From a virus (lineage: Duplodnaviria; Caudoviricetes): a stretch of 64,000 nt of DNA. Location: the IMG/VR virus record IMGVR_UViG_3300031998_000061, positions 6,976-70,975 of that record; one strand, written 5' to 3'. Below are positions 3,446 to 57,616 of the stretch, piece by piece (position 1 is the first letter of the stretch; every line of letters begins with the position of its first letter). A model generated the notes under the pieces. It was not told the DNA's origin. It was given only the letters and a program-made list of their open reading frames with translations, and made no database searches. The translations under genes were made by a program, and so were the position numbers.

Positions 3446-3646
3446 CCCACAAAATATTTTATGGTTTACCAATTTTACCCATTTACAAACCAAAAACACC
3501 CAGATTCTGTCATTAAAAAACCAATAATATTTTTATGGAAACCATGATATATTTTTATGCCGTCACATTGCAACCATAATATTTTATATGGTTTATATAT
3601 TATAACCAAAATATATTTTATGGTTTACCAATAAAATTAAATTGGA
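3446..3646. repeat. Six degenerate 20-bp palindromes, consensus ACCATAAAATATTTTATGGT
   Basis: Copies start at 3446, 3520, 3541, 3573, 3605 and 3627. Confidence 0.8.
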
Positions 3647-4943
3647 AACCGTAAGTTATAAAATGGGAAAAGTTGCCGAAAAAATAATCATGCAAAGAAA
3701 ATACCCGAAAAACAGAGAAAATCTTGAGTTCTATATACAAGGTTTGATTGAAAGAAGGTTTACTTTAAGGCAGGTTTCGTATATCACCAAGTATACAACA
3801 AGGCAGCTTACACGGCTAAAAAGCAGATATGCCGCAAAGGGAAAAGCCGCTTTTATCAATGGTCATAGAGGTCTTAAATCAAAAACCAAAGTGCCGGAAC
3901 GGATGAAGAATCAAATCGTAAACGTCTACAAAACGGAATTTCTGAACTTCAATTTTAACTTTTTCGCGGCGGCTCTGCATGAATTTTATGACATACACTA
4001 CTCATACAGCACCATATATAAGATACTCGCCGAAGCCGGGATTGAATCGCCGGAGAAACATCATAAGAAGAAAAAAGACAAAATTCACAGACCGCGCTAC
4101 AGAAGGGAATGCGGCGGCGATCTAGTACAGATTGACGCAACGCCTTATCAGTGGTTTAGCTGGTGCGGCGATAACACGTATTATGCACTTCACGGCGCAA
4201 TCGACGATGCAGAAGAAAGAATTACAGGCTTGTGCATGACCGAAAATGAATGCAGTTACGGCTATTACGAGATTCTTTCACAAACTATAGAACGGCACGG
4301 CTTGATGTTTGATATTTATTCAGACCGTTCAGCAATTTTCTGCGCTACGCCGAAAGAAAAAGACAAGCTCACAGTACAGGAACAATTAGCCGGATTGCAT
4401 GAGAAACGCACACAATGGCAGCGCATTTTGACTGATTTCCGCATAAACCAGATTCTTGCATGGTCGCCGCAAGCAAAAGGACGTGTTGAACGCATGTGGA
4501 AGACCTTACAAGGTCGCTTGCCGTGGTATTTCAAACATTACAAAATAAAGACGGTTGAAGCGGCAAATATTTTCCTTAAAGAACATTATATTGATATTTT
4601 CAACAAGGAATTTTCTATAAAAAGAGAAAAGAAAGCCGTATGGAGAATTCCGCCTGTTAATTGGCGTGATTTAATCTGCTCGCGCTTTGACAGAACCACA
4701 AACAGTGCCGGTGTTATTTCTTTTCAAGGCTATAAGTTCCAGATTGAAGCAAGAGATTGCGCCCGGAAAAAGATAGAGCTTTGCATTTACAAAGACTGCA
4801 TAAAGGCATACATGGACGGCAAATTTTACGCCGTAAGGCTGCTTGATGAGCTTACTGACGGAATCGGCGAAACTATGAGCGTCTCGCTTAAAAATCTGAT
4901 TTACCAATACATGTATTCTGACGCAAAGCAGATAAGCGCATAA
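3642..4943 (+). CDS. DDE transposase, ISNCY/IS1202(IS481)-like
   Basis: N-terminal HTH; HRPRYRRECGGDLVQIDAT (D), YSDRSAIF (D), QAKGRVERMWKTLQGRL (E). Confidence 0.9.
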   Translation: METVSYKMGKVAEKIIMQRKYPKNRENLEFYIQGLIERRFTLRQVSYITKYTTRQLTRLKSRYAAKGKAAFINGHRGLKSKTKVPERMKNQIVNVYKTEFLNFNFNFFAAALHEFYDIHYSYSTIYKILAEAGIESPEKHHKKKKDKIHRPRYRRECGGDLVQIDATPYQWFSWCGDNTYYALHGAIDDAEERITGLCMTENECSYGYYEILSQTIERHGLMFDIYSDRSAIFCATPKEKDKLTVQEQLAGLHEKRTQWQRILTDFRINQILAWSPQAKGRVERMWKTLQGRLPWYFKHYKIKTVEAANIFLKEHYIDIFNKEFSIKREKKAVWRIPPVNWRDLICSRFDRTTNSAGVISFQGYKFQIEARDCARKKIELCIYKDCIKAYMDGKFYAVRLLDELTDGIGETMSVSLKNLIYQYMYSDAKQISA

Positions 4944-5068: not shown

Positions 5069-5470
5069 TTACAGCATTTTGATGATTCTTTTGCTTACAG
5101 GTTTTCCGAGCTTTACAGTTCTTGAAGAACCGAACGGATCATAAATAACTTTGCCGTTGCTTGTAACAACGAAATGCGCGTATGTGATACCTGTCTCGCA
5201 ATACTCATATCTTGTAACTTCATACTCATTCTGCTTGAGCTGATAACCGACGGCGGCATGGAAAACATCAGCCTTATTGCCGGTTATTTCTTTTATGATT
5301 TCAGCAGGTTTCGCAACATAGCAATCAGCTTCTATCCAGCCTTTTGACAGAGCCTTTTCATAAAAGCGAACGACGTCAGTTTTCTTTCCCGCAATCTGAT
5401 TCGCAACATGAATAAGACAGAGAAAGTAACAACCGCTCGCGCCGATTTTCTTACATATCGCTTGTGTCAT
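5069..5470 (-). CDS. Papain/C39-like cysteine peptidase (DUF261-like), candidate endolysin (ORF track opens at 5521)
   Basis: GCYF...HFVV...YDP Cys/His/Asp arrangement; directly follows a holin-like gene; GGGGG SD before ATG 5470. Confidence 0.6.
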   Translation of the reverse strand: MTQAICKKIGASGCYFLCLIHVANQIAGKKTDVVRFYEKALSKGWIEADCYVAKPAEIIKEITGNKADVFHAAVGYQLKQNEYEVTRYEYCETGITYAHFVVTSNGKVIYDPFGSSRTVKLGKPVSKRIIKML

Positions 5471-5756
5471 GACCGCCCCCATTGAAAGAACCTCTTGAAA
5501 TGTTCTTAATAACCGAATCAAACCCTTGTATCAATGTCTGATAGCTGATTTGCACAGTTCCTAAAGTCAAGAGACTGCCGATAACCCATACAGGCAGCAG
5601 CTCAGCTGCAAGGTAGCAGCCGATGCAAATAGGTATCATGATATAAGCCCATATTTTTTTATTGCTGAAATTGAGAAAGTTTTTCAGCCATTCAACAATT
5701 CCTACCGTTGCGAAAGCGGCACAAGCTACTTTGCAAATAAACATTGTGTTAAGCAT
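5451..5756 (-). CDS. Putative holin
   Basis: About 100 aa with 2-3 hydrophobic segments, upstream of the peptidase; SD before ATG 5756. Confidence 0.6.
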   Translation of the reverse strand: MLNTMFICKVACAAFATVGIVEWLKNFLNFSNKKIWAYIMIPICIGCYLAAELLPVWVIGSLLTLGTVQISYQTLIQGFDSVIKNISRGSFNGGGHDTSDM

Positions 5757-6360
5757 TCTTTTCCCCCTGCCAACCGGCAATATCCCTTGCGCTTTTGTAT
5801 ATTTCACCGAAAAAGTCTTTTGTCTCGTCGTAAGAAATCTTCGTCATAATATCCGGCAGGTTATATTGCGGAAGTTTGTCATTGAATATGTAAAGCCTTT
5901 CCCTTACAAGCGCGTAATAAGCCTTAGACTTTGCGCTTGTATATTGGTCTAGCTCTGCATTGCTTTTGCTCGTAATATGATTTCTGGTAAAATCATTTTT
6001 CAACTCATAATTGAGCCTGTCTGAAATTCGGTACGTTATAAGCTCAAAAATTATTTTGTCAGACTGATTGGTGATATTCAGTTCTCGTAAACCAATCTCA
6101 TAAAGCTTTGCTCTCCATCCTTTTATAAGCAGCTTTGCAACTTGCGACTGGTTATCAACCAAGTCTTTTCCTTCTGCAATGTAACGCTCTTTGATTTCCG
6201 GCTTGATCTCGTTTATCTCAAAAAACTTCGTCTTTATATTCTTTTTCCATAGAAGAATGAATACACCGCAAATAATCAGCATAAGCACAACCAAAACAAC
6301 CATCGAAATTAAGCCAATTACAACCCACCCTGTAGACGGAATAGAATTTAAGCTTTCCAT
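5749..6360 (-). CDS. N-terminally anchored membrane protein of the lysis cassette
   Basis: Long hydrophobic stretch WVVIGLISMVVLVVLMLIICGVFILLW followed by KK. Confidence 0.7.
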   Translation of the reverse strand: MESLNSIPSTGWVVIGLISMVVLVVLMLIICGVFILLWKKNIKTKFFEINEIKPEIKERYIAEGKDLVDNQSQVAKLLIKGWRAKLYEIGLRELNITNQSDKIIFELITYRISDRLNYELKNDFTRNHITSKSNAELDQYTSAKSKAYYALVRERLYIFNDKLPQYNLPDIMTKISYDETKDFFGEIYKSARDIAGWQGEKNA

Positions 6361-26527: not shown

Positions 26528-26953
26528 TTAGAAAAACTTAATTTTCTTCTTGATAATCAATATTGTGAGCAGAAGAGCGTTCTCTGCTATCAGCAGTCCT
26601 ATTACTATCCACTTTACTCTCTTGTGATGCTTCGAGTTCGCTTCTGAGACGGTCAATTTCGTCGAGTATTCGCTCAACCTCAAGTTCATATTCTGTGATG
26701 AGGAAGTCAAGGCGTTCACTTGCATCTCTAATACGCGCACTTGCTCTTCCGACAATTTCAAGGCGTTCTCGACTATCGTGTATTGTGTCACTGAGAGTGC
26801 CGATTGATCCTTCAATTCGTCCAATGTTTCGTGAATTTGCTTCGATAAGCTCTGCGTCTTTGCCCTGTAATCCTGTGACTGTTGCGCATCCTGTGCATAC
26901 AAAACACAGCACGAGAACAAGCAGATAAATAAAAACCTTCTTAACCATTTCAT
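26528..26953 (-). CDS. Exported coiled-coil protein with C-terminal TM helix (i-spanin-like candidate)
   Basis: Signal peptide ending VLYA/Q; C-terminal WIVIGLLIAENALLLTILII-KKK. Confidence 0.6.
   Translation of the reverse strand: MKWLRRFLFICLFSCCVLYAQDAQQSQDYRAKTQSLSKQIHETLDELKDQSALSVTQYTIVENALKLSEEQVRVLEMQVNALTSSSQNMNLRLSEYSTKLTVSEANSKHHKRVKWIVIGLLIAENALLLTILIIKKKIKFF
26538..26948 (-). CDS. Coiled-coil lipoprotein nested in another frame (o-spanin-like candidate)
   Basis: MVKK plus hydrophobic core plus CTG/C lipobox; heptad-rich body. Confidence 0.65.
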   Translation of the reverse strand: MVKKVFIYLLVLVLCFVCTGCATVTGLQGKDAELIEANSRNIGRIEGSIGTLSDTIHDSRERLEIVGRASARIRDASERLDFLITEYELEVERILDEIDRLRSELEASQESKVDSNRTADSRERSSAHNIDYQEEN

Positions 26954-27006
26954 TATTTCCCCCTTTGTTTATTCCTAAGATTCAGCAACCCTTTGTATTA
27001 CCGCCT

Positions 27007-56498: not shown

Positions 56499-57026
56499 TT
56501 AGTTTTTTTTGATTATCAATTCAGCAAGAATCTCAAACTTTGAGAGCGGCATTACCACAACTCTATGCATCGGCAGCAGCTTGCTTTTGATAAACAAAAG
56601 CCAGTTGTCCAGATCATCACAGTTGCTTTCGGCTTGCCGTACCCATTCCGGCAGAGATATTGTGTTCACGTTCTTGCACTCAATGCAGAACGGAAATTTC
56701 TTCTTTGCCTCGCCTCTAAGAATTACATCAGTTCCGTTCAAGCCGGATTCCCTCGAATGAATAGGGCAATCATCTGACTGCTGATTGTATTCTATGCCTG
56801 TGATTCGTGAAATCATCGCGCAAATTTCTTTCTGCCAGTCCAAGCCCTTCTGCTTTGCGGAACGCGGCTTTATTTTCTGCATTGATTTTTCAATGCGCTT
56901 TGCCAACTTCTCGTTTGCCTTTGTGTTCTCGCTCCGCAACAGTGCAATGATTTTCTTTTTTTCATCGGCATTAAGTGTAAGAACCAAAATACAGCCCCCT
57001 AAAATTCCGGATATGGATATAAACAA
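56499..57026 (-). CDS. PD-(D/E)XK nuclease, Holliday junction resolvase-like
   Basis: KQKGLDWQKEI...GTDV...IECKN. Confidence 0.75.
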   Translation of the reverse strand: MFISISGILGGCILVLTLNADEKKKIIALLRSENTKANEKLAKRIEKSMQKIKPRSAKQKGLDWQKEICAMISRITGIEYNQQSDDCPIHSRESGLNGTDVILRGEAKKKFPFCIECKNVNTISLPEWVRQAESNCDDLDNWLLFIKSKLLPMHRVVVMPLSKFEILAELIIKKN

Positions 57027-57616
57027 TGACCGTACACCCGATGGCGTTGGTCTAAGTTTTCAGGCTTGTCTGGGTCTTTCGGCTCTACGTTTGTTGACGG
57101 CGACCGCTTGCACAAGAGAATAAGCGACTTTATCCAATCATTCTCATATAAGAAATTTTCCACAGTGCCGAAGCAACCGCAAAGCGTGTCAAGGCTTTTC
57201 TGACCGAAACAAAAAGCTGGTGTTCCATACATGATAAGATTGCTTTGTACTATGCCGTCCATCAAAAAGCCCAAGATTGCAGAAGTTGCACCACCCTGAC
57301 TCCACCCTGTAAAGAACCACTGATAGCCAATCGGAAACTTACTGTTAAGCCAGTCTTCGTAGACGTAATTAAAAACTGCTTTTGCTTGCAAATAAAAGCC
57401 AAGCGTTGTGATTATTTTCTTCTTTCCGTTCGTAACAACTACAGGTATTACGAGAAAGTTGAAAACCCAATCCCACAATGTTTTTGTTTCCTGCATTTCA
57501 ACAAAGATGCGTTTTTCTTTCTTGTCGATTCTATATCTCCAGTTTGCGCCGGTTTTCTTGTCGAGATTATAATCGCGGCTCAACTGGATTTCGTTAAATA
57601 GATCCAAATATTTCAC
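56999..57616 (-). CDS. Lipase class 3-like alpha/beta hydrolase
   Basis: FTGWSQGGA (GxSxG), YGTP, ENDWI, terminal His. Confidence 0.75.
   Translation of the reverse strand: MKYLDLFNEIQLSRDYNLDKKTGANWRYRIDKKEKRIFVEMQETKTLWDWVFNFLVIPVVVTNGKKKIITTLGFYLQAKAVFNYVYEDWLNSKFPIGYQWFFTGWSQGGATSAILGFLMDGIVQSNLIMYGTPAFCFGQKSLDTLCGCFGTVENFLYENDWIKSLILLCKRSPSTNVEPKDPDKPENLDQRHRVYGHCLYPYPEF

Follow-up and report, generated by a model that had tools for sequence, protein, structure and literature searches.

One question posed by the phage genome described here is whether two open reading frames that occupy almost exactly the same DNA, with starts only a few nucleotides apart, are both genes, and, if they are, what their two products do for the phage. 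The source virus record is 70,975 bp long and carries direct terminal repeats, and the stretch that was analysed (the window, 64,000 nt) comprises its bases 6976-70975. A first-pass annotation made from the sequence had pointed out two stop-free frames, here called A and B, starting 5 nt apart behind one GGGGG Shine-Dalgarno sequence, and both ORFs and the Shine-Dalgarno were located on the minus strand (Table 1). The same annotation had read the pair as spanin-like, with a lipoprotein and an inverted inner-membrane partner, and had placed it about 20 kb from the holin; a holin-like gene does lie ~21 kb away.

The arrangement of the locus is compact. The start region reads GGGGG-AAATA-ATGAAATG, the last element containing the two ATGs, and the overlap takes up >95% of each gene, both proteins being ~140 aa. 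A virion structural gene follows the pair after 10 nt, and a tail-fibre-like gene precedes it by 54 nt. No terminator-like sites were found between 26200 and 27300, promoter-like matches in the same interval were no more frequent than in shuffled sequence, with none directly ahead of the pair, and no promoter- or terminator-like sites were found between the pair and its neighbouring genes. The predicted RNA fold at the start region is nothing unusual (z = -0.26). The pair has probably remained a late gene in the window.

Table 1. Features of the A/B locus and of the lysis cassette, in window positions
Feature	Coordinates	Strand	Remarks
ORF A	26528..26953	minus	141 aa; proposed type I inner-membrane subunit
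ORF B	26538..26948	minus	136 aa; predicted coiled-coil lipoprotein, nested wholly in ORF A, +2 frame
Shared Shine-Dalgarno GGGGG	26959..26963 (plus-strand CCCCC)	minus	5 nt before the A ATG, 10 nt before the B ATG
Signal peptide of A, residues 1-20	26894..26953	minus	likely signal peptidase I cut between LYA and QD
Lipobox of B, C-T-G-C	26886..26897	minus	Cys21 is the predicted lipidated residue
C-terminal membrane helix of A, ~residues 115-134	26552..26611	minus	polar pair E-N mid-helix; DNA shared with the B tail
Lysis cassette	5069..6360	minus	pair absent from its usual slot after DUF261
203-aa protein with N-terminal membrane helix	5749-6360	minus	opens the cassette
Holin-like multi-helix membrane protein	5451-5807	minus	cassette ORF
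DUF261 protein, endolysin slot	5069-5521	minus	PF03196, E=5e-21
IS-type transposase	3642-4943	plus	occupies the pair's slot after DUF261

Both frames are genes

Three sets of relatives bear on the coding status of the two frames: 14 metagenomic loci, whose A is 29-96% and whose B is 35-92% identical to that of the window; 12 loci from genomes of the family containing Treponema MAGs; and 10 much more distant loci found with a frame A profile (E = 1e-4 to 1e-24). Both frames are open over their whole length in 36/36 related loci, with B constantly in the +2 frame of A, and they stay open though the superfamily has diverged to almost no sequence identity, amino-acid identity falling in step and equally for A and B. 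An interruption of one frame in close homologues, which the first-pass annotation had named as a possible refutation, was thus found in none of the 36. Within the overlap of the 26 closer loci there are no stops in A and none in B, 2.6-8.9 in the antisense frames and a mean of 17.6 in the third sense frame, so that the region is not simply stop-poor; a general scarcity of stops in coiled-coil DNA is likewise ruled out by the ~18 stops of that third frame.

Resampling, in which one protein was held fixed and synonymous codons were redrawn according to each phage's own codon usage, points in the same direction. With the B of the window fixed, A was open in 0.08% of trials, and with A fixed, B was open in 0/5000; across 15 loci, A was open in ~0.04-1% of trials with B fixed, and B in <=0.02% with A fixed. 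A conservative within-gene permutation left the other frame open mostly in 0.2-9%.

Codon-position variation in the homologues also speaks for coding in both frames, with constrained wobble positions. In the coiled-coil core, codon positions 1/2/3 of B vary by 0.237/0.140/0.269, and the usual wobble excess is absent. The contrast is clearest in three loci (L006, L010 and L011) with an Amidase_2 neighbour, where that gene gives 0.043/0.061/0.329 versus 0.128/0.026/0.111 for the pair; the pair's protein identity is lower than that of Amidase_2, yet its wobble variation is suppressed. The segment encoding the A membrane helix follows the pattern expected of frame A alone, with 0.455/0.215/0.587 in the prophage group.

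The start region is also conserved. A ribosome-binding site is kept at both starts in every lineage, and the two starts are <=19 nt apart in 26/26 loci with mapped starts. Where the B start lies 13-19 nt ahead of that of A, the first codons of B are mostly ATGAGGAG or a near variant, and codons 2-3 of this type supply an AGGAG-type site for A. Furthermore, searching with the frame A profile gives 221 cluster representatives (50% identity) at E<=1e-3, of which 116 reach E<=1e-10; family members are nearly all 130-165 aa and align end to end. The 54 representatives that were read all share a signal peptide, a helical middle part, a membrane helix at the C-terminus and a conserved motif at the end.

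Set beside these comparisons, the reading in which only B is a gene, and A a long open frame that arises as a by-product of B's composition, has next to no probability and is already effectively refuted. It draws on the codon usage of A, which resembles that of an off-frame (a score of -0.057 in the window, versus -0.054 for off-frames and 0.108 +/- 0.044 for real genes), and on the gene callers, which pick mostly B among close relatives (called B homologues, n=23). Each of the results above counts against it: the open A frame at every locus, the stops of the third sense frame, the constrained wobble positions of B, the rarity with which resampling of B alone leaves A open, and the A-only codon pattern of the membrane-helix segment. 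Moreover, A keeps its signal peptide, membrane helix, basic tail and C-terminal motif where the tail of B varies. On this comparative evidence, that both A and B code for protein can be regarded as essentially proven, which upholds the claim that both nested frames are genes.

Features of the two proteins

Protein A opens with a hydrophobic N-terminal signal, continues as a long helix, turns hydrophobic again over residues 116-133 and ends in the tail IKKKIKFF. The C-terminal membrane helix, with a mean Kyte-Doolittle score of 2.5, is found in 36/36 loci, followed in nearly all by a basic tail, and the N-termini of relatives resemble A-x-A-type signal peptidase I sites. AlphaFold2, run with a 26-row alignment, predicts a single helix over residues 2-140 (mean pLDDT 84.7). 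Heptad a/d positions of A are 56% hydrophobic versus 24% elsewhere (p=0.03), a weaker pattern than that of B. The cleavable-looking signal, coiled coil and C-terminal helix attributed to A in the first-pass annotation recur in the 36 loci. By standard rules, mature A would be a type I inner-membrane protein with ~90 helical periplasmic residues.

Two further features of A vary by clade. A polar residue in the middle of the membrane helix is conserved, as E-N in the window's clade and as Arg in the prophage clade (L028-L038), and the end motif is strongly conserved as IKIPYLLNLLL or, in the wider family, LPRWLDILL, with LPRWLDILL and IPYLLNLLL both occurring among the 54 representatives. The possibility that A is itself a lipoprotein, or a unimolecular spanin, was considered and rejected: most relatives have L, F, V or P just ahead of the Cys in A's hydrophobic region, contrary to a lipobox, and signal peptidase I-like sites lie downstream of that Cys.

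Protein B begins with a lipoprotein signal ending in C-T-G-C, which is followed by a hydrophilic stretch and an acidic tail. Of the 36 loci, 34 have a lipobox-like motif; all 26 aligned sequences keep Cys21, and none of the B sequences listed for related loci has an Asp at +2 of the lipobox. AlphaFold2 (26-row alignment) predicts a helix over residues 2-121 and a disordered tail, with a mean pLDDT of 81.9 that rises to 86-98 over residues 31-110. Hydrophobic residues fill 71% of heptad a/d positions versus 20% of the others (p=0.0005). The description of B as a coiled-coil lipoprotein cut at CTG/C thus holds on lipobox, heptads and predicted helix alike, and by standard rules mature B would be a lipid-anchored helix of ~80 residues. 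Two distant loci (L070 and L072) appear to have a B without a recognisable lipobox and with a plain N-terminal membrane helix instead, so that their pairs represent a variant made of two membrane-helix proteins.

The tail of B, which lies opposite the A membrane helix in the DNA, is of variable length, and in three loci (L004, L015 and L036) B ends before this segment. It is conceivable that the functional product is a frameshift fusion, initiated at the B start and shifted +1 into A near the end of the coiled coil, so that a lipobox at the N-terminus and a membrane helix at the C-terminus would give it the topology of a unimolecular spanin. The unconstrained B tail beyond the coiled coil, and the encoding of the A membrane helix exactly there, are what such a product would show, and its layout would match that of T1 gp11 (PMC6139136). 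However, A retains its own ATG, Shine-Dalgarno and signal peptide in 36/36 loci, all of which a fusion would render needless, and an informal look noticed no conserved slippery site. A fusion is thus highly improbable, and A and B are treated below as two separate polypeptides.

Relatives in sequence databases

Neither blastn nor tblastn against 50,697 GenBank phage records gave a match for the region, A or B, and pattern scans of IMG/VR and GTDB genomes based on the B alignment returned nothing, although an HMM search of genomes did find relatives. Pfam gave only sub-threshold coiled-coil matches for A and B, sequence searches of the PDB gave only generic coiled coils, and a protein atlas returned only leads scoring <=0.91. 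Among PHROG families, the top match of B was phrog_89 'Rz-like spanin' (11/26 members, best E=1.5e-5, a weak match), and that of A was phrog_3268 'spanin' (9/26 members, best E=5e-4, a full-length but weak alignment). These matches are consistent with one another and fit a spanin reading without proving it, and could stem from composition alone, namely a signal peptide plus a coiled coil.

The pair in lysis cassettes

The lysis cassettes of relatives carry the pair as their last or second-to-last gene. The usual order in genome-borne copies is a ~200-280 aa protein with an N-terminal membrane helix, a holin, a DUF261 or CHAP protein, and the pair last, where the holin is a small multi-helix membrane protein that is read as such; one locus (L046) has no small holin, and in another (L041) a small membrane protein lies downstream of DUF261. 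The genome-borne loci in the Treponema-containing family are most likely prophages. Elsewhere, 10 nt separate the end of the pair from a following Amidase_2 gene in L010, and one gene intervenes in L006 and L011. Even among distant pairs, some directly adjoin a gene for CHAP (L082), Peptidase_M15_4 (L085) or a DUF261-like protein (L084), and others are one gene removed from CHAP (L081) or Peptidase_M15_4 (L083).

The window departs from this pattern. Its cassette is 44-57% identical to Treponema prophage cassettes, except for one match of 23%, but the pair, which lies beside the endolysin gene in relatives, is embedded among other genes 21 kb away, a separation that counts against a lysis role. 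The transposase found in the vacated slot has its closest relatives mostly in Treponema MAGs, and in two Treponema MAG contigs (L028 and L029) a transposase 69-72% identical to it lies within ~1 kb of the pair. These observations suggest that IS activity is linked to relocation of the pair in the window's phage lineage.

Several neighbours of the pair deserve mention in their own right. The DUF261 slot is filled in related cassettes by CHAP, Peptidase_M15_4 or Amidase_2, and since DUF261 occupies the endolysin slot it is probably a peptidoglycan hydrolase with an endolysin role; its conserved motif G-C-Y-F-L could hold a catalytic Cys, and a PDB sequence search with DUF261 gave no match. Lipase-like proteins with a G-x-S-x-G motif adjoin the pair in two unrelated phages, L006 (10406-11026) and L007 (9416-9991); that of L007 matches Lipase_3 (E=1.6e-10), and that of L006 has no Pfam match and a 51% identical homologue in the window (56999-57616, minus strand), 30 kb from the pair. 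From its sequence motif and position, the lipase-like protein may be an auxiliary lysis esterase.

The 203-aa protein of the window has one long N-terminal membrane helix followed by a basic flank, and its relatives, 160-280 aa long, open lysis cassettes of the Treponema-family loci. One could suppose that B partners this cassette-opening protein (~200-280 aa; 5749-6360 in the window) as a classical i-/o-spanin pair, with A as an accessory or regulatory protein, for the protein is conserved at the heads of cassettes and is anchored N-terminally, as an i-spanin should be. The membrane helix of the window protein, however, is followed by the basic flank WKKNIKTK, its N-terminus not being basic, and by the positive-inside rule the large domain would then be cytoplasmic. 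In L082 and L085, which lack a small holin, a protein of this type is the sole holin candidate. Furthermore, A is no less conserved than B, and this extends to its membrane helix and C-terminal motif. Pairing of B with the 203-aa protein is thus very unlikely, and A is preferred as the partner of B.

The host

A spanin presupposes a host with an outer membrane, as the hosts of relatives have: relatives of the pair lie on chromosomal contigs of Treponema-family genomes that bear FlaA. Among 301 sampled genomes of the family containing Treponema MAGs, the B profile matched 12 and the A profile 22. In one genome, two copies of the pair lie on a 2.74-Mb contig that also carries FlaA, a spirochaete flagellar sheath gene. 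A phylum-wide sample of 401 genomes gave strong matches only in genomes already known from the family sample. The host of the window's phage, which comes from the gut, is probably Treponema, judging from cassette homology and the relatives of the transposase.

Some taxonomic labels disagree. Two genomes labelled Lachnospiraceae or Clostridia (L017/G653 and L020/G655) carry the pair on phage-like contigs and have no FlaA. A Lachnospiraceae host was rejected, the two genomes so labelled or labelled Clostridia being probably binning errors. A genome labelled 'Anaerobutyricum sp.' (L024/G229) comes from the Treponema-containing family sample and has three FlaA genes; its label looks wrong.

A spanin-like reading of the pair

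A lipoprotein and an inner-membrane protein, both with coiled coils, encoded at the end of holin-endolysin cassettes of phages with a diderm host, agree with the working picture of a two-component spanin (PMC6139136), and we consider it reasonably probable that A and B form a two-component spanin-like module that breaches the outer membrane, with an inverted, type I inner-membrane subunit. The lysis role proposed for the pair in the first-pass annotation thus finds support in position, since the pairs of relatives abut endolysin genes, and in the diderm host.

It is possible, though unlikely, that A and B are real envelope proteins with another job, such as superinfection exclusion, antiholin-like timing of lysis or a periplasmic tether, and that adjacency to endolysin genes reflects co-expression only. 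Phage lipoproteins beside lysis genes can be 'morons', accessory and dispensable for the lytic cycle, as is lambda Bor; the look-alikes of B in the protein atlas include clusters of Lpp-like and alanine-zipper lipoproteins (scores of 0.83-0.85, leads only); and in the window the pair lies in a structural operon, away from the cassette. Co-expression alone would nonetheless have to account for an association, on the same strand and down to a distance of 10 nt, with genes for three unrelated families of peptidoglycan hydrolases plus DUF261, and for its recurrence both in large phages that encode a DNA polymerase of their own (L006, L010 and L011) and in probable prophages. Some outer-membrane step is moreover required in a diderm host, and B is the sole convincing lipoprotein ORF in the 71-kb genome, so no other spanin candidate was found there.

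For the preferred, spanin-like reading, we infer that B sits in the outer membrane, that A and B bind each other and that the membrane is broken by them. A and B would be translated from one late mRNA, from two ATGs 5 nt apart behind a single Shine-Dalgarno. B would be exported and would carry its lipid on Cys21, with an N-terminal anchor that most likely sits in the outer membrane's inner leaflet; its coiled coil could reach out from there over ~80 residues, or ~12 nm. A would be exported by its cleavable signal until the C-terminal membrane helix stopped transfer, leaving the N-terminus out and the C-terminus in, with a helix of ~90 residues (~14 nm) whose free N-terminus points towards the outer membrane. 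Both helices would then run N to C from the outer to the inner membrane, and two geometries can be envisaged: a parallel, side-by-side A/B coil of ~12-14 nm, or a tip-to-tip arrangement of ~26 nm, in which the B helix's C-terminal end meets the N-terminal end of A. The latter length comes near the widths published for the treponemal periplasm. In either case the coils would associate and link both membranes across the peptidoglycan, and once holin and endolysin had removed the wall, the complex would collapse or oligomerise and breach the outer membrane, a step modelled on the proposal for Rz/Rz1.

Origin of the overlap

Codon usage bears on which frame came first. It was scored in seven loci with a local reference, and B is gene-like (+0.068 in the window). 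By the usual criterion, gene-like usage in B and off-frame-like usage in A mean that B is ancestral and A overprinted, and on codon usage B thus looks like the older frame. The usage of A fits overprinting; taken alone, it would argue against A as a gene.

The overlapping codons that encode heptad a/d positions in B also encode them in A (B residue j, A residue j+2), and this coincidence suggests that A inherited a 'shadow' of B's hydrophobicity via the genetic code. A tentative proposal, which we hold to be possible but doubtful, is that A arose through overprinting of the gene for the very protein that was to become its partner, one DNA stretch coming to encode both strands of a heteromeric coiled coil. 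The older B would have been a coiled-coil lipoprotein, the shifted reading would have turned its hydrophobic N-terminus into a signal peptide, the second coiled coil would pair with B in register and in parallel, and the A membrane helix would have been gained where the B tail was unconstrained. If this is true, a single gene gave rise, with no duplication, to a membrane-bridging machine of two subunits.

Whatever its origin, the A/B pair is, among double-stranded DNA phages, an old and extreme instance of dual coding, and a clean natural system for overprinting, twin start codons and the co-evolution of interacting proteins in the same DNA. Because gene callers give one frame only, half of the module is absent from most annotations. 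If the spanin-like reading is true, the pair fills two gaps, that of a spirochaete-phage spanin and that of a type I i-spanin, and explains how Treponema phages pass an outer membrane unlike the enterobacterial one.

Comparison with known spanins

Literature on Treponema spanins, type I i-spanins, DUF261, BlyA/BlyB and overprinted spanins did not describe the arrangement, and no spanin of spirochaete phages was found described in the literature searched. In the 2018 spanin census, a type I, C-terminally anchored i-spanin figures only as an unexamined possibility outside its criteria (PMC6139136), and a 2025 spanin survey keeps the 2018 categories, so that the pair would be, as the first-pass annotation had suggested, a new spanin architecture. 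Judged by the criteria of Kongari et al. (2018), A has the coiled coil of an i-spanin and lacks the type II N-terminal anchor, and B has the lipobox of an o-spanin, with atypical length and helicity. Neither is a unimolecular spanin, A being without a lipobox and B without a membrane helix.

The closest parallel is Rz/Rz1 of phage lambda, in which one gene also lies inside the other in a different frame (PMC6139136), and a lipoprotein is likewise combined with an inner-membrane protein that has a periplasmic coiled coil; the pair of relatives, too, comes last in a holin-endolysin cassette of phages with a diderm host. In contrast to Rz1, which is short and nested in a much longer Rz, A and B are near-equal in size and overlap almost completely. 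Rz is a type II inner-membrane protein, whereas A, with a cleavable signal and a C-terminal membrane helix, would be type I, and the short periplasmic domain of Rz1-type lipoproteins is predicted to be unstructured, whereas B forms a long predicted heptad helix. The A and B starts also share one ribosome-binding region, B lies in the +2 frame of A, and the hosts are spirochaetes.

Two other systems resemble the pair in part. T1 gp11, a unimolecular spanin (PMC6139136), has a lipobox and a C-terminal membrane helix, features that are divided here between B and A, in proteins of ~130-150 aa; in T1 gp11 both anchors are on one polypeptide, whereas A and B each carry only one, and T1 gp11 is predicted to be mainly beta-sheet (PMC6139136), unlike the periplasmic parts of A and B, which are predicted alpha-helical coiled coils. 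The Rz-like i-spanins of phrog_89 share with B a hydrophobic anchor at the N-terminus and a coiled coil after it, but their anchor is a plain membrane helix where B has a lipobox Cys, and the matches, which are weak, may reflect composition.
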